Source: a virus
Length of the DNA stretch: 64,000 nt
Direction: 5' to 3' (one strand)
IMG/VR virus record: IMGVR_UViG_3300002988_000032
Span: 12,793 to 76,792 of that record
The first letter of the stretch is position 1; every line of letters starts with the position of its first letter. This document shows positions 4,158-47,015 of the stretch, piece after piece. The notes beneath the pieces are model-generated. The model ran no database searches, was not told the origin of the DNA, and worked only from the letters and a program-made list of their open reading frames with translations. A program made the translations under genes and the position numbers.

Positions 4158-5297
4158 TCAATTGCGGGCGCGAACCGCGAGGTTCGGATCCAGCGTCTTC
4201 ACGCCGAACAGCGCGTCGACGCGAACGTTGACCGCCGACGTGTCTCCGTCCCACCACAGCGACGAGCGCAGCGACAGACCGGTGACGGGATCCGTGACCG
4301 ACTGCACGCGGGCGCCGACCTGTTGCGCGGCGTCCGACAACGGGGCCATCGCCAAGGCGAAGGCGTTGCGATGAAACGCGAGGCACTCGCTGTGATCGTC
4401 CAGCGAAACCGTGACGTTCGCGTTGTCCGCGTAATCCTGGATCAACGCCGGGAAAATCTGGACGGCGGGGAACGCGTTGCCGGCCGCCGTCGCCGGCGCG
4501 GTGACGACATACCGCTGCGTGTTCCCGGCGATCACGAAACTTTCGCCCCTCACCAGCGTCCCGGTGACGGTGGCGGCGTCGATCGAGATCGTGGTCGCCC
4601 CCTTCGCGTGGGCGCCGTTCAGAGCCAAGGCGGAAACGGAAGCCGTCCCCTTGGTGTGGCCGACGACATTCTGATTCGCGAAGAGGTTGAAGCCGAACCG
4701 GCGACCGAGCGTCGCGTCGGTCTGCGAGGATACGCCGTTCTGCCCGGCCCCCTGCCACTGGGTGAACGCCGACTGGCCGAGAAGGTCGGCCTCGAAGTCG
4801 CCGTCCAGCATCAGATGGATGTTGTCGGCGTCCGTCAACGGGACTTTGTTGTCGAACATCAGTTTGCGGATGCCGACGAGATCGGGGATCCCGGCGGTGC
4901 CGCCGACATCGTAATACCACGGGATGCAGTTCGCCTGATCGGCCAGAGCCTGATCGATGGCGTCGGCGATGGCGTAAGCCGCCGGGCGGATATGCTCTTC
5001 GATGATGGTCTGGCCGGTGGAACTCAGATCCTTGTCGGTGATGGTGAACCGGACGCCCTTCCACTGATCGAGCGTGATGTTCACCTCCTCGGCGTTGACG
5101 TCCTGGGAATCCGACGACCCGACGTCCCGCGCGATGAACGTTCCGGGTTTGCGGATGGCGATGGTGGACCCCTTCTGTTGGGGAGCCTTGTCGTAACCGC
5201 GATAAACGCGGCTCGCGAGACCAAGGGACTTCTGAAGCTGGATCAGAGCCTCGTTGGCGTACCAGATCGGATCATAGGCGCTGTAGACGTTCGCCAT
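4158..5297 (-). CDS. Major capsid protein, P22 coat (gp5)-like
   Basis: 379 aa; KGSTIAIRKP, AYAIADAIDQ, LAFHRNAFALA, RVDALFGVKTLDP motifs; follows the protease gene. Confidence 0.85.
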   Translation of the reverse strand: MANVYSAYDPIWYANEALIQLQKSLGLASRVYRGYDKAPQQKGSTIAIRKPGTFIARDVGSSDSQDVNAEEVNITLDQWKGVRFTITDKDLSSTGQTIIEEHIRPAAYAIADAIDQALADQANCIPWYYDVGGTAGIPDLVGIRKLMFDNKVPLTDADNIHLMLDGDFEADLLGQSAFTQWQGAGQNGVSSQTDATLGRRFGFNLFANQNVVGHTKGTASVSALALNGAHAKGATTISIDAATVTGTLVRGESFVIAGNTQRYVVTAPATAAGNAFPAVQIFPALIQDYADNANVTVSLDDHSECLAFHRNAFALAMAPLSDAAQQVGARVQSVTDPVTGLSLRSSLWWDGDTSAVNVRVDALFGVKTLDPNLAVRARN

Positions 5298-12711: not shown

Positions 12712-12957
12712 TCACGCTTCGCTCCGGTTCATGGGATGGATCAATCCCGCGGCTTGGCCGGCGGGGAGCCGAGATCGATCATGATCGAGGTTCCATGCGG
12801 CGGACGGGGAGGGCGCGCGGCACACCGCGTGAAGGACGGCGAAGCCAAAGGCGGCGCCGAGGAGGAAACACAGCGCGCCGACGGCGCCGAAGGCGAGAAT
12901 CGCCGTCGTCGTTCCGCCGCCCGAGGAGAAGCCGGCGCGCGGAGGAGGGGAGGGCAT
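12712..12957 (-). CDS. Small membrane protein
   Basis: One hydrophobic segment (AILAFGAVGALCFLLGAAFGFAVL); start overlaps the upstream stop. Confidence 0.4.
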   Translation of the reverse strand: MPSPPPRAGFSSGGGTTTAILAFGAVGALCFLLGAAFGFAVLHAVCRAPSPSAAWNLDHDRSRLPAGQAAGLIHPMNRSEA

Positions 12958-27229: not shown

Positions 27230-29259
27230 GCGGCTTCTCCATCCTGTTCGGTGTTGGTGTTCGCCCCGCCTTGGGGCGTGGCGTCCTCATCCGGCACACC
27301 TTCCCAGGCGGATTCAGGAATGACGATCTTCGTGTTGTCGCGGACCCATTGCTCGGCGCCCGCTTCGTTCATTCTCGGGTCCGGCATCCCCCGCTTTCTC
27401 AGGTTATAGACGGTCGCCTCGCTCACATTGAGTCTCCGCGCAAAGCTGCACAGCGTTTTCTGTGTTTTTTTGCTGATATCAAGGGCGGACGACAGGAGGT
27501 ATACTCGCTCAACGCTGATGTTCTCTATGATCCATTTGCCTGATCCGGCATCATCAATTCTCGGATCTGGCATCCCACGCGCCATCCAACCGCAAATTGT
27601 TGAAGTGGATACATGGTTTTTTTTCGCGAATTCTGTGAGCGACGTAGAAAACTTATTTGCATCACGTTTTGCGCGAGACCGCTTTCTCAGAGAATCTCTA
27701 TCGACGTTATTTTTGATCCACGCGTCCGCCTCGGCATGATCGCGCGTAGGATCCGGCATGCCGCACTTTCTCCATCTTATAATTGACCCTATCCCAATAC
27801 CTCTACTATTGGAAAACCGAGTTAAAGTCTCACCGGTTTCCTTGCTGTTTTTCAGTGTAGCATTAAGCTGCCTTATTCTATCCGCATCGACATTTCGTTC
27901 AATCCAGTCTATAGCCGCCCCAGCCCCGGCATTAGGGTGTGGCATCCCACGGCTAATCCAGTTGTGAATGGTCGCCTTCACGACCCCGCATTCTTTTGCG
28001 AAACCACTCACCGTCATCGGTTTCGCTGCGCCGCACCTTATTTCGTGGAGCGCCCCATCAAACCGCCCCGGCTCCCGCCCCGCCGGATACTCGTACCCGC
28101 ACTCCGGGCAGATTGCGGAGATCGGATGGGCGCATCCGCACTTCGGGCAACGGCGGATCACCTCTCCCGCCTTCCGGGCGTTCTCGATCCGGCGCGTTCG
28201 CGCTCCACCCTCAAGAGACCATTCAAACGTCGCGTCCGGGAACCCGTGCTCCATGCACATTCCGGCGTGGTCGAGAACCGTCACGATGGTTTTCCCGGCA
28301 TCCAACCGAAGCCCGCGCCCAACCATTTGCAGGAAGACGCGGAGCGACCTCGTGGGGCGCAACAGGATCACGGTTTCGATGCCGGGAACGTCGAAGCCCT
28401 CGATAAACAGGTCGACGTTGACCAAAACTTTGATCCGCCCGGCGGCGAAATCCGCGACGAGGAGATCTCGTTCGGCATCCGGGGAGTTGCCGGAGACGTG
28501 AGCGGCGGATATCCCCGCCTCTTGGAACCGCGCGGCGACATTCTCGCTCATGGCGACGGACGGGCAAAAGACGATTGCCCGCGTCCCCGGCGCGATGCGC
28601 TGGTAATGCTCGATCGCGTCGCCAATCAGGACCGGGCGGTTCATGGCCTTGTCCAGATCGTCGGCGCGGTAGTCGCCCTTGCTCATGCGCGCGGCAGTCA
28701 AGTCCGGCTCGGTCGGGGCGAACCAGCGAAAGCGCGATAGATGCCCGGCGTCGATCAGATCCGCGACCGACGGCCCGACAACCAGCGCCTCGAACAGGTC
28801 GTCCAGCCCCTTCCCGTCCAGCCGTTCCGGTGTCGCGGTCAGTCCGACATGGGCGGCTTGCGGGTGACGCCGCATCAACGCGGCCCACGTCTTCGCCGCC
28901 GCGCGGTGGCATTCATCCCACATGACCGTTTTCGGCTTTGGGAACTCCGCGTCGTGGTTCCGCAGGGTATCGACGGAACCGATTTGCATGAGCTTGCCCG
29001 GCTCTCGCTTCGCCCACGGGGCGATGACGCCAAAATCGATCCCGGCGCGTTTGAACGTCCGCATCGCTTGTTTGATCAGTTCCTTTCGGTGGCACAGGAA
29101 CCACACGGGACCGACCCCAAGCCGTTCCCGCGCGATCTCCACCCCCGTGAAGGTCTTTCCCGATCCGGTCGGCATTTGCAAGACGACGGAGTGATGGGTT
29201 TCGAGCGCCGCCCGCACATCGGTGACGGCCTTGAATTGGTATGGTCGAAGCGCGCTCAC
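27226..29259 (-). CDS. SF2 (DEAD/DEAH-like) helicase with Zn ribbon and four C-terminal wHTH repeats
   Basis: LRPYQ, MPTGSGKT, DECH, LTATP, EGFD, QMVGRGLR; CPKC/CPEC; four GMPxP repeats. Confidence 0.9.
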   Translation of the reverse strand: MSALRPYQFKAVTDVRAALETHHSVVLQMPTGSGKTFTGVEIARERLGVGPVWFLCHRKELIKQAMRTFKRAGIDFGVIAPWAKREPGKLMQIGSVDTLRNHDAEFPKPKTVMWDECHRAAAKTWAALMRRHPQAAHVGLTATPERLDGKGLDDLFEALVVGPSVADLIDAGHLSRFRWFAPTEPDLTAARMSKGDYRADDLDKAMNRPVLIGDAIEHYQRIAPGTRAIVFCPSVAMSENVAARFQEAGISAAHVSGNSPDAERDLLVADFAAGRIKVLVNVDLFIEGFDVPGIETVILLRPTRSLRVFLQMVGRGLRLDAGKTIVTVLDHAGMCMEHGFPDATFEWSLEGGARTRRIENARKAGEVIRRCPKCGCAHPISAICPECGYEYPAGREPGRFDGALHEIRCGAAKPMTVSGFAKECGVVKATIHNWISRGMPHPNAGAGAAIDWIERNVDADRIRQLNATLKNSKETGETLTRFSNSRGIGIGSIIRWRKCGMPDPTRDHAEADAWIKNNVDRDSLRKRSRAKRDANKFSTSLTEFAKKNHVSTSTICGWMARGMPDPRIDDAGSGKWIIENISVERVYLLSSALDISKKTQKTLCSFARRLNVSEATVYNLRKRGMPDPRMNEAGAEQWVRDNTKIVIPESAWEGVPDEDATPQGGANTNTEQDGEAA

Positions 29260-29417
29260 TCCTCACCCTCCCCGCTCAAGTCCGGCTCACGGAACGGCGT
29301 GCGGTCGCGGAATTCGGATCGCTTGCCCTTGTTGAACGACGTGACCGGGCGGTGATAGCCCATCACCCGCGTCCAGATTTCGCAGCGTTGGCGTTCGGAA
29401 TCTTGGAGATCGGTCAT
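29256..29417 (-). CDS. Stand-alone NrdD C-terminal (glycyl-radical motif) peptide, 53 aa
   Basis: Read by hand: RCEIWTRVMGYHRPVTSFNKGKRSEFRDR; overlaps neighbours at both ends. Confidence 0.7.
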   Translation of the reverse strand: MTDLQDSERQRCEIWTRVMGYHRPVTSFNKGKRSEFRDRTPFREPDLSGEGEE

Positions 29418-30661
29418 CACGCGGCCCTCTTGTCGGAGACGACGACCACGACCTCGTCCACGCCCAGGCAGTGGCGGATATCGGCTTCAAGACGCCCGAC
29501 GAGCCAATCGCGGTGCATCACGTTCGGGGCGACAATCCGGGCCGAACCGGAGGAGATGACGATCCCGTTGGCGATGGGAGCGATCCAGCGCTGGTACGTC
29601 GTCGGATCGAAGCGCTCGGACCATGGCGGCGGAACGACGGCGGGAGGGACCGAAGGCCTCGCCGATCGCGTCGCGGCGGCTTGGGCGACGGCTCGGCGAA
29701 CGTCGTGGTCGAGAACGGCGGCGAGGCTGCGCGGCGGGTCGTCGGGCTTGCGTTCGGCGAGACGACGGAACTGCCGGCTAACCTCCTCGGCCACGGCTTC
29801 GGCGGTTCGATCCGGCGTCAAGCCGCGATCGAACCCATCCCCGATCCAGGCCGCGAAAAGCTCCTCGTCGCGGGGGCCGAAGGGGCGGTCCGGCAGGTCG
29901 AATATATCCTCGAACGCCTTGGAAACCGCGGATTTCACGGCTTGTACCGCCGCGACGGTTCCGGCGCCGAAATCCCCCGATCCCGGATCATCGGGCGGCG
30001 GCGGGCCTTCGCGCGTGGGGGTGCGCTCGCGCGTGAAAGCCGCCGCCGTTCCAATTTCAGATCTCTCTTCCCTCTTCCCTCCTCCCTCCTCCCTCAGCGC
30101 GGCCGTTTCCGAACTTTTCGGAACCGACGGGCGTTGATCGGTGTCCGGTTCGGAACTCGACCCGCGTTGGTGGCGCTTGCGTTCTGAACTCGCCCCCCGT
30201 TCACGCGCGGCGAGTTCCGAACACACCCCCACATCATCATCATCCGGTTCCGAACCGTCGTCGCGTTGATCGGTGTCCGGTTCGGAACCGGATCTTTTCT
30301 TCGCGCCCCCCCAAAGGTCCATTCTGACCCATTCATGCAGTTCGGGCGGCAGAGGGTGGACCTTCGTCGGCTTCTTGGGCTTCTGGTAACGGACGAAGTT
30401 GCGGATCGCGCCGTAAACCTTCCCGTGCACCGTGAAGCGCACTATCTGCCGGCGCTCCTCCAGTTCCGACAAGAGGGCGGACATATCGATATTGTCGGCG
30501 GGCATCAGCCGCATCTTCAGTCCGACCGGTTTCCATTCAAAAACCCCTTGGTCGTCGGCCTCGTTACGAAGGGCGAGGACGAGGAGCCGGGCGAGCGCGG
30601 AGCACTCGACGAAATCCTCGTCTGTCCATTGTCCCGGAAAGGTGGAGCGAATGCGCGCCAT
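29417..30661 (-). CDS. Phage replication initiator (O/DnaT-like) with C-terminal DnaA N-terminal-like domain
   Basis: MARIRSTFPGQWTDE...ADDQG N-terminus; TYQRWIAP...APNVMHRDWL C-terminus. Confidence 0.75.
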   Translation of the reverse strand: MARIRSTFPGQWTDEDFVECSALARLLVLALRNEADDQGVFEWKPVGLKMRLMPADNIDMSALLSELEERRQIVRFTVHGKVYGAIRNFVRYQKPKKPTKVHPLPPELHEWVRMDLWGGAKKRSGSEPDTDQRDDGSEPDDDDVGVCSELAARERGASSERKRHQRGSSSEPDTDQRPSVPKSSETAALREEGGGKREERSEIGTAAAFTRERTPTREGPPPPDDPGSGDFGAGTVAAVQAVKSAVSKAFEDIFDLPDRPFGPRDEELFAAWIGDGFDRGLTPDRTAEAVAEEVSRQFRRLAERKPDDPPRSLAAVLDHDVRRAVAQAAATRSARPSVPPAVVPPPWSERFDPTTYQRWIAPIANGIVISSGSARIVAPNVMHRDWLVGRLEADIRHCLGVDEVVVVVSDKRAA

Positions 30662-42295: not shown

Positions 42296-42377
42296 GACGG
42301 TATCCCGTGGAAACTTCAACATCCACGAGATACCGTGATTTTCGCCCTTGACCGAGCCACGGTATACCGTGCATAAT
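42296..42377 (+). promoter_or_regulatory. Early promoter with three operators
   Basis: TTGACC-N18-CATAAT; CACGGTATACCGTG (42358-71, perfect palindrome), 42324-37 and 42296-309 (12/14 each). Confidence 0.7.
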
Positions 42378-42430: not shown

Positions 42431-42826
42431 ATGACCAAAACCGACGAACACGCCCGGATCGACATCGCGATCGGCGCGCGGATCCGGGAGCGACGCGTCA
42501 GCTTGGGAATGTCTCAGTCCAAGCTGGCCGGGGCGATCGATTTGACCTTTCAGCAGGTCCAGAAGTACGAGCGTGGGGCGAATTCGCTTTCCGTCGCCCG
42601 CCTTCTTCAGATCGCCGAGGCGCTGAACAGCCCAGTCAGTTTCTTCCTGCAAGAGTCTCCGGACGCGGAGACGACGGAAGACGACGACGCTTCCGATCGT
42701 GAGCGCCTCAATCTCATGGCCGACTATCGCCGACTTCCGCCCCAAATGCGCGACGTCGCTCGGCGGAGCGTTCGGACGTTGGTCGAGGCGTGGGAAGTTC
42801 CCCGACCGACCGCCGTCGCCGCCTGA
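42431..42826 (+). CDS. XRE-family HTH regulator (alphaproteobacterial type)
   Basis: IGARIRERRVSLGMSQSKLAGAIDLTFQQVQKYERGANSLS. Confidence 0.9.
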   Translation: MTKTDEHARIDIAIGARIRERRVSLGMSQSKLAGAIDLTFQQVQKYERGANSLSVARLLQIAEALNSPVSFFLQESPDAETTEDDDASDRERLNLMADYRRLPPQMRDVARRSVRTLVEAWEVPRPTAVAA

Positions 42827-42888
42827 CGCCTTTCGCGACGACGCGGGGGAGTCGACGGCGTCCTCCCCGCCCGGCCCCGCGTCGACCT

Positions 42889-42929
42889 TCCCCCGCCGGT
42901 ATCGCTTACTCCGCCGGCGGGGGATTTTT
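42889..42929 (+). terminator. Intrinsic terminator
   Basis: TCCCCCGCCGG/CCGGCGGGGGA 11-bp stem followed by T5. Confidence 0.7.
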
Positions 42930-42947
42930 CAGATGAGGGAATTGAAC

Positions 42948-43796
42948 ATGGCGCACAGCGAGAATATTCCGCCCAGACCGATATGGCAGTCGTACGCGGT
43001 CGTCGGCGCCGCCGCCCCCAAAGTCGCCGCCATCATCGGCGCGTGGTCGGGTGAGCCGTTGGGCGGCGAACGCGCGGTCGAGATCATCATGGGCGCGCTG
43101 GCCACGTCCGATCTGGACGGCTATCGATTGGCCCGGAACCTGGAGGACGGGTTGGGGATCAAACCCGACGCCGATCTCGTCGAGAGTTTGGATGAGGCGT
43201 TCGACATTTTGAGTGACGCGGAGGTCGACGCCGTCGCGGCCTGGGTCGCCGAACACGGGGTCTCTTGCCCCGCCGGGGTCGGAGACACGGTTCGGGCGAA
43301 ATGGGGCGGCGAGACCATCGAGGGCGTGATCGTCGAAATCGACACGCGCCTCGGCCTGTGCATGATCCCGACCGGCGGCCCCGACGAACGAAGAGCGGTC
43401 GTGCGCTTCGAGGACGTCGAGCGCGTCCGGCGTGAGGATCAGCCCGCGTCGAGCGGTGGCGAGGGATGGTGGCTTTGCGAAGTCGACGGCGAGCCGGAGT
43501 TGACCGTCGGGCATCCGGTCGAAACCGGGCAATTCGAGCGCGCGGAGAACATCCGCCCGGCGACGGCTGAGACGCTGAAAGAAGCCCTTTTCGCCGCCCG
43601 GGGACGCTACGCCGATTTGGCGAGCAAGCCGATGTACGCGCCCGGGCTTCGCGACAAGATCGCTCTGTTGAGGTCGATCCTCTCCGACGCGAGGGTTTAC
43701 GTCGAAAGCTGCGCCGAGGATCCCGACAGCCCCGAAAACCTCGCCGCTGGCGTGCTCAGGCGATTGGACGCCGCCCTTTCCGGGGAGGGGACGTGA
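42948..43796 (+). CDS. Hypothetical phage protein (282 aa)
   Basis: DGYRLARNLED...AAWVAEHGV pattern; GAGGGA RBS. Confidence 0.6.
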   Translation: MAHSENIPPRPIWQSYAVVGAAAPKVAAIIGAWSGEPLGGERAVEIIMGALATSDLDGYRLARNLEDGLGIKPDADLVESLDEAFDILSDAEVDAVAAWVAEHGVSCPAGVGDTVRAKWGGETIEGVIVEIDTRLGLCMIPTGGPDERRAVVRFEDVERVRREDQPASSGGEGWWLCEVDGEPELTVGHPVETGQFERAENIRPATAETLKEALFAARGRYADLASKPMYAPGLRDKIALLRSILSDARVYVESCAEDPDSPENLAAGVLRRLDAALSGEGT

Positions 43797-43954
43797 TGGC
43801 GGTCGACCCGGAGGTCATGGCGGCGTTCGGCCTTACGACGGGCCAAGCCGTTTCGGACTTTCTCGTCACCAAGATCATGGAGGCCGAAGTCGCGATGTTG
43901 AAGGCCGAGATCCAAGCCGAGAAGGCGATGAGCGGCCCGACGGAAACAATCTGA
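43796..43954 (+). CDS. Hypothetical protein (52 aa)
   Basis: Read by hand; TGATG overlap; GGGGAGGGG RBS. Confidence 0.45.
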   Translation: MAVDPEVMAAFGLTTGQAVSDFLVTKIMEAEVAMLKAEIQAEKAMSGPTETI

Positions 43955-44420
43955 GTTCCCAAGTTCGGTGCGGGATGAGGGTGTGGAGAAAACCACCCTC
44001 CCCACGAAACGCAGCAAGGGACGGCTACGACCGGCAACCGAAAGGTGGCAGTCGGCAACGTTGCAAAGTCGTTTTGGCGGTCCGACCAGTGCACAGCGCA
44101 CCGCCGGCCCGCACCGATCCCCAGCCGGGAGGGGCAAGTCCCGGCACCTATTCGCCCGAGGGGGAACCCGAATTCAAGGCGATCGGCGGGTCAACTGATC
44201 CCCCTCGGCGGAGGGAGCCTCCCTAACCCCGCCGTTGGAATGAGGATGGTCGCCGCCGGGGGCGACAAGTGTCCGGGCGCCTCAATCGAGGCCGCGCCAA
44301 CCGAGCGGATCGGAGGGCCGTGGAAATCGGCCCGCCCCCAACCGCCTTACCCGGCCTGAAAACCGGGTGGCGGTCGAGGCGTCGAGAGGGGGATGGCCCG
44401 CTCTCAGAATCAACAAGGGG
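43955..44420 (+). ncRNA. Candidate large structured RNA or leader (about 460 nt)
   Basis: At least ten stems, a 10-bp long-range helix and several GNRA loops in an intergenic gap. Confidence 0.45.
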
Positions 44421-44427
44421 ACCAACC

Positions 44428-44802
44428 GTGGACGACATGACCCGCTTTGTTCAAGGCATTATCCAAATGGAGAACGATGACGCCGGCGAGGCGACCAAAT
44501 ATGGCGCCGACGACTTGAGGGCGGCTTTCTCCAAGTTCAGCGAAAAGCACAATTTTGAGCCGGGCGATGTCGTCCAGTGGAAGCCGGGAATGAAGATCAA
44601 GAAGACGGACGGTCCGTTCATCATCACAGAGGTGTTGGCGGAACCCATCCTTGATGACTGCGACGATGCCGGCTCCGTGTACTTCCGCGAACGCCTTGAT
44701 GTGAAGGCGGGCAATATCGTCGGCAACGGGGAATTCGTCGAATTTCACTACGACAGTCGGCGCTTCGAGCGATTCCCCGACGAACCCGTCGCTTCAGCCT
44801 AA
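44428..44802 (+). CDS. Hypothetical phage protein (124 aa)
   Basis: FEPGDVVQWKPG...YFRERLD...FHYDSRRFE; GGGGA RBS. Confidence 0.65.
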   Translation: MDDMTRFVQGIIQMENDDAGEATKYGADDLRAAFSKFSEKHNFEPGDVVQWKPGMKIKKTDGPFIITEVLAEPILDDCDDAGSVYFRERLDVKAGNIVGNGEFVEFHYDSRRFERFPDEPVASA

Positions 44803-45506: not shown

Positions 45507-45967
45507 GCGATCCCCCGACAGCATCACGAAGAGCCTGATGCGGCTTGTGACCATCCTGCCGGCGCTGTTCGAGACGCGGATTTGTCCCCCGCGCGAGACG
45601 GCGAGCCGCCGGCGCTCCTCCAGTCGGGGAACGCGCCCGGGCGACCGCACCGAGAAGGCCGGTGTCCGGCCCCGTGTCCCATGAACAGCGAAGGCTGAGA
45701 AGGCGGAAACGATGACATGGATCAAACCCGCGACGCGCGCCCGGCGGACTGAGGGCGACCGGAACGCCGAATAGGCGCGATGGGGTGGGCGGCGACCGAA
45801 CACTCCCTCGTTCGATGGATCGCCGGGAGCCGCCCGACAGCGCGAGTTCAGAGCACCGGGCGGCGGGTTTGTGTTCCAACCACGGACGCGGACAAATGGG
45901 CCGCCGCCCGTCATCAGCGAAGTGACGCGAACACGGGCGTCATGTCGCCAACCGCGGGAGGGCCGTC

Positions 45968-46099
45968 ATGTTCAGTCGTATCGTCGTCGTCGCGTTCAGC
46001 GCCAGGGACTGGTCGGATCGGATTTCGCCCGTCGCGATGGCCGCGATCATTCTCGTCGGGTTGGCGTTCATCACCGCCGGCGGCGTCGTTTGGCCGTGA
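45968..46099 (+). CDS. Small membrane peptide (43 aa)
   Basis: Read by hand; GGGAGGG RBS; hydrophobic C-terminus. Confidence 0.35.
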   Translation: MFSRIVVVAFSARDWSDRISPVAMAAIILVGLAFITAGGVVWP

Positions 46100-46128
46100 A
46101 ACTGAACACTTGATCGAGGTTGTTGTTC

Positions 46129-46506
46129 ATGAGTTCAGCCGCGCCCAATCCCGTCAATATCCGTCTCGGCGAACGCGCGCGCCTTCGGCGCGATCTCCTC
46201 GGCTTGAGCCGGGAGGCCGTGGGGAAGGCGATCGGCGTCTCCGGGCGCCGGATCGCGGATATCGAACGCGGGGTCGCGCGCGTCGATGTGGCTCTCCTAG
46301 TCGGTTTGGCCGGCGCGCTCGACACGGCGACGACGTATTTTCTCGACGAGAGCGCGGACGGGGACGGGTTGGGGGCGGCATCCGCCGACGCCGAGTTCAC
46401 CGGATATTTCGCGAAACTGACCGGAAAGCAGAGAACCACCCTCCTCCACCTCGCCAAGTCGATGGCGGAGGTGCCGCCGAAACGCGCGGGAGCGCGACAA
46501 CGATGA
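46129..46506 (+). CDS. XRE-family HTH, diverged paralogue of 42431-42826
   Basis: LGERARLRRDLLGLSREAVGKAIGVSGRRIADIERG. Confidence 0.75.
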   Translation: MSSAAPNPVNIRLGERARLRRDLLGLSREAVGKAIGVSGRRIADIERGVARVDVALLVGLAGALDTATTYFLDESADGDGLGAASADAEFTGYFAKLTGKQRTTLLHLAKSMAEVPPKRAGARQR

Positions 46507-47015
46507 TCCGGCGCGGCGGAAAACGGAAGCGGCGCATTCTGCTCGACAAGAGTGAACTTCCGATCGGGCCGAACACGGCGAGAATGGATCGTCCGGAGAC
46601 GCGATTCCGATCAAAACCGCATCGGGATTGGATCGGCGCCCTGCCCTGCCTGATATGCGGGCGGATCGGTCCGGTCGCCGCCGCTCACATCCGACTGGGA
46701 AACGACGGAGCGGCCGGGGTCAAACCGTCGGATTTCTTCACCGTGCCGCTGTGCGATTCCCACCTGGGCGGCTTCGCGTTCGACGGATGCCACGACATCC
46801 AGCACTCGATGGGCGAAGGCCCGTTTTGGGCGCTCTACGGCGGCGTCGACCGGGCGCGGGAAACGGCGCTCGACTTCGCCGCCAAGTCCCCCTGCCCCGA
46901 CGCCCGCGAAGCCGCGCGCCTGTTCCGCGCGACCGGATGTTGGGCGGCGCCGGGCGACGCGCCGGCGATCGATCCCGCCCAGCGCCCGAAACTCGATCAA
47001 AGGAATTTCCGATGA
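46503..47015 (+). CDS. DUF968/Ref-like HNH nuclease
   Basis: RSKPHRDWIGALPCLICG, AHIR, KPSDFFTVPLC...CHDIQH. Confidence 0.75.
   Translation: MIRRGGKRKRRILLDKSELPIGPNTARMDRPETRFRSKPHRDWIGALPCLICGRIGPVAAAHIRLGNDGAAGVKPSDFFTVPLCDSHLGGFAFDGCHDIQHSMGEGPFWALYGGVDRARETALDFAAKSPCPDAREAARLFRATGCWAAPGDAPAIDPAQRPKLDQRNFR

Follow-up and report, generated by a model that had tools for sequence, protein, structure and literature searches.

Protein-free read-through of transcription terminators is known from put of phage HK022, where it proceeds via the zinc-binding domain of the RNA polymerase beta' subunit. The eps-associated RNA (EAR) of Bacillus is a structured RNA of ~100-150 nt that lies inside an operon, and boxB and TAR are targets of arginine-rich peptides. 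To our knowledge, the regulatory RNAs of Alphaproteobacteria phages are almost unexplored. HK022 put is a cis-acting pair of adjacent, bulged stem-loops in the sense orientation of the early operon; it follows the early promoter, and putR lies ~270 nt downstream of the PR start (PMC9378689).

The element described here shares features with several such systems. Like put, it consists of two adjacent stem-loops with a bulge and lies after an early promoter and the first regulator gene of its operon, and neither put nor the element is adjoined by a dedicated protein gene. Like nutR and nutL of lambda, it stands after a cro-like gene and ahead of delayed-early genes of the recombination type, and both combine a hairpin with a conserved linear segment. 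Like EAR, it could act on elongation whatever the downstream gene. As among the orphan phage RNA motifs of the GOLLD/ROOL/HEARO type, we find a conserved, covarying intergenic structure of prophages, one copy of which (L023) adjoins a phage tRNA gene, with a tRNA-Met 56 nt upstream of the modelled element.

The window, by which we mean the whole 64,000-nt stretch of DNA that was analysed, runs from base 12793 to base 76792 of a linear IMG/VR virus record that is 78,487 nt long and has an estimated completeness of 84%; the window has a G+C content of 64.5%. Structural genes occupy the minus strand in the left part of the window, and an early operon on the plus strand contains a non-coding gap, the surroundings and parts of which are as follows:

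42348-42377, plus strand: sigma-70-like promoter, with the early operon behind it
42431-42826, plus strand: gene for an XRE-type helix-turn-helix (HTH) regulator, first gene of the operon
42699-43796, plus strand: ORF of an orphan gene between the HTH gene and the 53-codon gene, ending at 43796
43793-43954, plus strand: 53-codon gene directly before the gap
43955-44436: the non-coding gap, ~480 nt
43955-44333, plus strand: non-coding GC-rich spacer (67% G+C, 12% T) with most of the helices listed in an earlier note on this DNA
43965-44117, plus strand: domain closed by the 10-bp helix TCGGTGCGGG/CCCGCACCGA, locally stable, no homologue found
44119-44152, plus strand: 7-bp hairpin with loop GGGGCAAG, similar to a site in Pseudomonas phages
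44341-44374, plus strand: hairpin P1, the "12-bp stem" of the earlier note
44341-46 with 44369-74, plus strand: outer stem of P1, ACCGCC/GGCGGT
44347-48, plus strand: UU bulge of P1
44349-54 with 44363-68, plus strand: inner stem of P1, ACCCGG/CCGGGT
44355-62, plus strand: loop of P1
44375-83, plus strand: junction CGAGGCGUC, family consensus YGAGGCGUYA
44384-88 with 44401-05, plus strand: hairpin P2 in its minimal form, GAGAG / 12-nt loop / CUCUC
44415-21, plus strand: Shine-Dalgarno (SD) sequence AAGGGGA ahead of the next gene
GTG 44428 or ATG 44437, plus strand: start of the next gene (121 codons), 3' of the gap
after the 121-codon gene, plus strand: TerB gene, then more accessory genes

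The orphan gene probably starts at 42948, which gives a protein of 282 aa (365 aa as the full ORF). Neither form had a homologue at E <= 1e-3 among ~5.8 billion proteins or any in IMG/VR, and the 282-aa protein gave weak PHROG matches only (phrog_17597 and phrog_11118). For the gene behind the gap, GTG 44428 has the better spacing to the SD sequence and ATG 44437 is the start of the stored 121-aa protein. This protein is small and acidic, and its homologues were found in unrelated contexts without common upstream DNA; those in L003, L004 and L005 adjoin WYL/WCX-domain regulators and large AAA+ ATPases, in surroundings that look like defence islands. A mini-ORF of 15 codons (44393-44440), unconserved in relatives, begins in the loop of P2, and its TGA stop overlaps ATG 44437 (ATGA). 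Further downstream, a 411-codon ORF (45780-47015) with a DUF968/HNH-like match at residues 266-328 and no close relative in IMG/VR is overlapped in another frame by a 128-codon ORF (46120-46506) whose codon usage is good and whose product is paralogous, at 34-38% identity, to the HTH proteins in G002, G003 and G198; the region 45780-47015 is probably two genes and not a single 411-aa protein.

GC content by codon position is flat over 43955-44420 and strongly periodic to either side. Log-odds of codon usage, trained on 19 confident genes of the same phage, ranged from -0.12 to -0.52 per codon in the nine ORFs of the gap (shadow-ORF mean -0.27), and from +0.31 to +0.63 in seven neighbouring small genes. 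A PHROG search of the gap ORFs returned nothing credible, and blastx of the gap against five related proviruses gave E values of 0.8 or worse. The flat GC-frame plot, the codon log-odds and the absence of protein homology in these searches rule out a protein-coding gene or pseudogene, and bear out the earlier note, which had seen no credible ORF here: codon periodicity is lacking, and all nine ORFs score as shadow ORFs. The same note had found no signature of tRNA, tmRNA or RNase P, which agrees with our searches, as no tRNA was found in the gap and the 4227 models of Rfam 15 (GOLLD, ROOL, HEARO, riboswitches and ribozymes included) gave 0 matches in the 64-kb window at gathering thresholds. 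A relaxed Rfam search of 43700-44700 returned only RAGATH-5 (17.1 bits vs. 50) and MIR2907 (15.6 vs. 60), both with E > 5, and nothing was matched within the element of the long-form relative L018. Repeats and iterons in the gap were short and at chance level, with no origin-like array, and no rut-like stretch of C>G was present.

The helices listed in the earlier note (among them the 10-bp pair, the 12-bp stem and GAGAG/CTCTC) exist where it placed them, and the 10-bp pair (43965-74/44108-17) is part of repeat I1 and appears in the minimum free energy (MFE) fold. Their density, which the note had read as a signal in calling the region tiled with helices, is overall within chance, as judged by shuffle z-scores and background windows. 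For the whole gap, z is -2.45 (plus strand) and -1.86 (minus strand), and the 5' 379 nt alone (last 100 nt removed) have z = -1.29, which was equalled by 10 of 100 shuffles. The pieces 43962-44110, 44150-44262 and 44240-44340 have z = -0.05, +0.21 and -0.82, respectively. The best domain (43960-44122) reaches z = -2.81 (4 of 200 shuffles); among 40 arbitrary 163-nt windows of the same phage, the mean z was -0.51 (sd 1.37) and 7.5% were at or below -2.8, and therefore a window framed around a helix is not exceptional. As the note itself had cautioned in writing that high GC inflates chance hairpins, the 5' hairpins match what 67-70% G+C yields by chance. The sole piece that stands out, both by stability and by conservation with covariation, is 44334-44410 (z = -2.87 on the plus strand and -4.47 on the minus strand).

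The 5' 386 nt of the gap had no match in five related proviruses, and a homologue of the 5' ~380 nt was detected neither in related phages nor in the collections searched. The 5' ~380 nt is an unconserved GC-rich spacer with background-level folding. The proposal of a candidate large ncRNA of ~460 nt is thus unsupported, given the chance-level folding of this part and its lack of a detected homologue; the 3' 80-115 nt, which are conserved, covarying and end before the ribosome-binding site (RBS), do suit the fallback offered with it, a structured phage RNA or an antitermination/translation-control leader. By z-scores and by covariation among homologues, two of the tests that the earlier note had named, the 3' part stood and the 5' part did not. 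The gap appears to be composite, with the conserved element confined to its last ~80 nt (P1 to P2, 44341-44405 = 65 nt, plus the spacer to the RBS). As a separate observation on the 5' part, the hairpin CCCCAGCCGGGaGGGGCAAGtCCCGGCAcCUAUU (44119-44152) has 31 of 34 nt in common with an unannotated intergenic site of the Pseudomonas phages SM1, PaMx31 and relatives (E 3e-3), which lies ~20 nt upstream of a gene and has a C-G loop-closing pair, vs. A-U in the window; this borderline match seems to represent effectively one independent lineage.

Flanking proteins were useless as handles on the element, and relatives were reached via the large terminase subunit (TerL) and then by degenerate DNA patterns. 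The TerL search led to two relatives, including provirus G002 (TerL 53% identical), and BLAST of the gap against the TerL relatives gave a 41-nt match in G002 that spans the 12-bp stem. Degenerate patterns found copies in provirus G003/L018, in four further IMG/VR proviruses and in one JGI metagenome contig; copies are also present in the genome records of Inquilinus sp. CA228 and 'Mycobacterium sp. KBS0706', and a 2-Mb replicon of Azospirillum brasilense matches a long-form copy at 94% identity. In the replicon NZ_CP059450, the element falls within 1,146,300-1,146,700. Pattern matches in L027 and L028 (metagenome scan) and in L019, L021, L022, L024 and L025 (genome scan) were discarded by eye as false.

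We built a covariance model of 66 positions (R1) from six copies, the window copy among them. This copy, being one of the model's six, scores 73.7 bits on the plus strand vs. 16.1 on the minus strand; it is the only one in the window phage (next best 10 bits), where the R1 search found no second copy of the nutL/putL type. R1 matched 17 of 130 genomes in the order that holds G103, 2 of 44 in the Inquilinus order and 2 of 151 sampled from the class. One copy each was found in G000, G003 and G197, and one real copy in G002; G198, G203 and G219 each carry two copies in series on one strand, 0.5-2.5 kb apart. The 30-bit match in L085, which precedes an AcrB-like gene, is probably false or a very distant member, and nothing similar to the element was found in the INPHARED phage collection. 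Judged by these matches, the bearers of the element appear to be temperate phages and prophages whose hosts are Azospirillum- and Inquilinus-like Alphaproteobacteria.

The window copy has all parts of the element (44341-44405, with the SD sequence at 44415), and nine nt separate the end of P2 from the SD sequence. Across the family, P1 has ~12-16 bp with the UU bulge between near-invariant C-G pairs. Over 26 distinct copies, CCCC-UU-ACCC, GGGU-GGGG and the junction GAGGC are near-invariant, and the P1 loop (4-8 nt, and its sequence) and the inner stem (4-7 bp) vary; the bulge and the junction, which is single-stranded, are where conservation is strongest. In some relatives, P1 can be lengthened by pairs between the GAGG of the junction and a CCUC further upstream, and in the window copy only weakly so; the corresponding pairs 13-18/63-66 are partly paired across the family. 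In nine relatives, the same covarying base carries a branched P2 of ~105 nt, the inner sequence of which is conserved, and the minimal P2 is that of the window phage, L041 and the second copy in G198. The long-form P2 domain was not found elsewhere in the genome of the window phage. An intrinsic terminator was considered and rejected: no U tract comes directly after either hairpin (YGAGGCGUY stands behind P1 and a C-rich tail behind P2), and a terminator scan of 43955-44436 was empty.

Two further observations concern relatives. L070:4973-5010 and L081:1706-1750 carry a variant P1 in which the outer stem is kept and the UU-ACCC..GGGU core is replaced by G-UGGACGG-UGAAAGCC-CGUCG-C, which suggests module swapping within the family. 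The lineage of G002, G003 and Azospirillum (L018:1540-2000, L011, L070:4956-5330) has ~190 nt of conserved non-coding sequence with strong hairpins 3' of the long-P2 element; its gene-free region of ~450 nt (z -3.5) begins with a 3-codon remnant ORF (ATG TCC .. TAG) and, as a candidate for a larger RNA, is preferable to the gap of the window.

In the 26 distinct copies, 94.2% of P1 cells are paired and 11 of 16 pairs show compensatory changes, in an alignment of related sequences that was fitted to the model and so favours structure. The number of P1 cells with double changes was 33, compared with 11.6 +/- 2.2 in column shuffles (reached in 0 of 500), and did not exceed 5 when the partner was moved by 1-3 columns. 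Individual pairs exchange G-C for C-G (e.g., 13 vs. 10 at one pair and 12 vs. 8 at another). The base of P2 has compensatory changes at 4 of 7 positions (exchanges among G-C, A-U and C-G), and RNAalifold applied to the nine long forms kept both P1 and P2, with compensatory changes in 10 of 33 pairs. Because the spacing of the half-sites varies and the swaps keep complementarity, P1 is better explained as a hairpin than as a duplex operator. Counting of G-U pairs barely discriminates between the strands (94.2% vs. 92.7% paired), and the window copy, taken alone, folds better on the minus strand. What mainly supports the assigned RNA sense is that two of the conserved parts, the UU bulge and the 3' junction, are asymmetric and that the orientation relative to genes is constant: in most copies read, the element lies in the orientation of the next gene, with an SD sequence 4-17 nt after P2 and then a start codon. 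From these features we infer that the acting form is RNA rather than single-stranded DNA.

With the family defined, the differences from the known systems can be specified. With filters switched off, R1 scored at best 2.6 bits (E 6.6) in the early and immunity region of HK022 (27600-30100). The element is single-copy in most phages, and its double copies are serial on one strand, not left and right as for put; its junction of 9-11 nt is conserved, whereas put has a single unpaired base; and its P2 grows to ~105 nt, its hosts are Alphaproteobacteria, and antitermination by it is putative. In lambda nut, the boxB loop is the determinant, whereas the loop of the element (4-8 nt) is unconserved and conservation over the 26 copies is in the bulge and stem, a bulge-centred pattern that recalls boxB and TAR as arginine-rich-peptide targets. 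Further differences from nut are that the linear segment lies 3' of the hairpin and not 5', that no boxA-like sequence was read in the flanks, and that an N-like protein was not identified, the profiles searched being those of NusG and Q. EAR belongs to another taxon and has another fold, and the element has no Rfam match to EAR or to any family. Compared with GOLLD and ROOL, the element is much smaller, and it matches none of the 4227 Rfam 15 models. By the defining features tested, the element is outside the Rfam families, put and nut, and its function may resemble theirs.

The genomic context of the element was compared among relatives. In G002 and G003, homologues of the HTH protein of the window (45-46% identity) are encoded ahead of the element in the same orientation, as is such a homologue in L070, L071 and L086; in G198 it lies 3 kb downstream of the element, and none was found near the element in G197 or G199. 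In G002, G003 and G197, the element heads an operon for DUF5131, a PD-(D/E)XK exonuclease, RecT and an SbcC-like ATPase, which is a delayed-early recombination block. The genes behind the element are often from unrelated families. A hairpin that resembles an intrinsic terminator and has a short U run stands before the element in G197, not behind it, and terminator-like sites in the operon of the window are not enriched over shuffles. The NusG (PF02357) and Q (PF06530) profiles found no match in G000, G002, G003, G197 and G198; N proteins are too short and divergent for such profiles. We also noted a divergent control region in L040:4440-4575 (G198); the first copy of the element follows ~360 nt downstream, with a 64-codon ORF between them, and in the control region the palindrome TTGCCATCATGGCAA overlaps a promoter-like site TTGCCA-N16-TATGTA (read by eye, 4540-4575); a scan of the G198 locus for consensus sigma-70 promoters listed no site, TTGCCA-N16-TATGTA included.

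Our preferred reading is that early operons of temperate phages carry in this element a new leader RNA motif that acts in cis, with control of elongation as the favoured function, to which we assign a probability of roughly 0.5. The element would act in cis, as RNA, on the early-operon transcript, and would be placed where the first regulator gene (XRE HTH) gives way to the delayed-early genes. The conserved bulge and junction may form a binding surface for RNA polymerase or for a phage or host protein, and binding would set how far transcription or expression runs into the downstream genes, as at an elongation-control site of the nut or put kind. Elongation control is favoured because of the position, which resembles that of nutR and putR, the indifference to the next gene and the put-like form of two hairpins with a bulge. 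Against it count the single copy in most virus records searched with R1, unlike the pairs nutL/nutR and putL/putR; the failure to find a NusG or Q homologue, to see an enrichment of terminator sites or to obtain an R1 signal at HK022 put; and the position of the terminator-like hairpin of G197 upstream, not downstream, of the element. A translational or mRNA-stability role would be equally compatible with the short distance to the RBS. A more specific proposal, that the element joins HK022 put and Bacillus EAR as a third type of processive antiterminator made of RNA only, used by temperate phages of Alphaproteobacteria, is rather unlikely; such an antiterminator would let RNA polymerase proceed past the immediate-early regulator gene and reach the recombination and accessory genes of the delayed-early class, and the optional 105-nt P2 domain might add sensing or protein binding.

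It is doubtful, as compared with elongation control, that the element serves as a leader for translation or mRNA stability, in which the 5'-UTR hairpins, perhaps protein-bound, would guard a processed mRNA against decay from its 5' end, or would place or mask the RBS. The short distance from P2 to the SD sequence and start codon in most copies read is as expected for such a leader, as are the conservation of the SD-like GAGG of the junction and of the purine-rich 5' strand of P2, and the persistence of the SD sequence with a mini-ORF (ATG TCC .. TAG) in L018, L011 and L070, where the downstream gene seems to have been replaced. However, the downstream genes are often unrelated, which makes gene-specific feedback implausible, no conserved pairing of the 3' strand of P2 with the SD sequence was seen, and the distance from P1 to the RBS ranges from ~60 to ~230 nt. 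Moreover, any intergenic element in a packed phage genome ends close to an RBS.

We regard as improbable that the element is primarily an RNA-processing site, at which RNase III or RNase E would cut P1 or P2 and part the regulator message from the downstream early genes. The early RNase III sites of T7 and the N leader of lambda are parallels for such processing, and the long, GC-rich, bulged hairpins between genes of one operon would suit it, as would the serial double copies in G198, G203 and G219. RNase III, however, needs little sequence conservation, whereas hardly any variation is seen here in the bulge, the pairs beside it and the junction, and P1 is interrupted and has just 12-16 bp.

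Still less probable is a role for the element as DNA, in which it would serve as an operator for the nearby HTH protein, as a signal for replication or single-strand initiation, or as a hot spot of recombination where modules meet. P1 is palindromic as DNA, an XRE HTH gene is often close by, the flanks are mosaic, and the G-U evidence for the RNA strand is weak. These points are opposed by half-site spacing that varies by up to 9 bp, by G-C/C-G swaps in the stem that keep complementarity and that a dimeric operator would not tolerate, by the asymmetry of the UU bulge and the one-sided GAGGC junction, and by the lack of a detected HTH homologue near the element in G197 and G199. The least probable alternative, to be given very little weight, is that the whole ~480-nt gap is one structured ncRNA with P1/P2 as its 3' domain and the 5' 380 nt as a lineage-specific domain: the z-scores of the gap (-2.45) and of the domain 43960-44122 (-2.81) and the ~450-nt non-coding region around the element in the L018/L011/L070 lineage (z -3.5) could be taken for it, but the 5' 379 nt have z = -1.29 with most pieces near 0 and overlap with background windows, and the extra sequence of the relatives lies 3' of the element, not 5', with no similarity to the gap.

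In DNA of 65-70% G+C, striking helices and GNRA loops seen by eye are no evidence of a large ncRNA. What the locus does contain is a motif new to Rfam with clear covariation, dozens of copies of which occur in prophages of plant-associated and soil genera (Azospirillum, Inquilinus), with a fixed place in the early operon. If P1 and P2 are only stabilising or processing hairpins, this would be an ordinary leader element. If elongation control, the favoured function, is true, RNA-based antitermination would extend past the enterobacterial lambdoid phages, and the element would offer a compact part for the control of operon read-through in Alphaproteobacteria.
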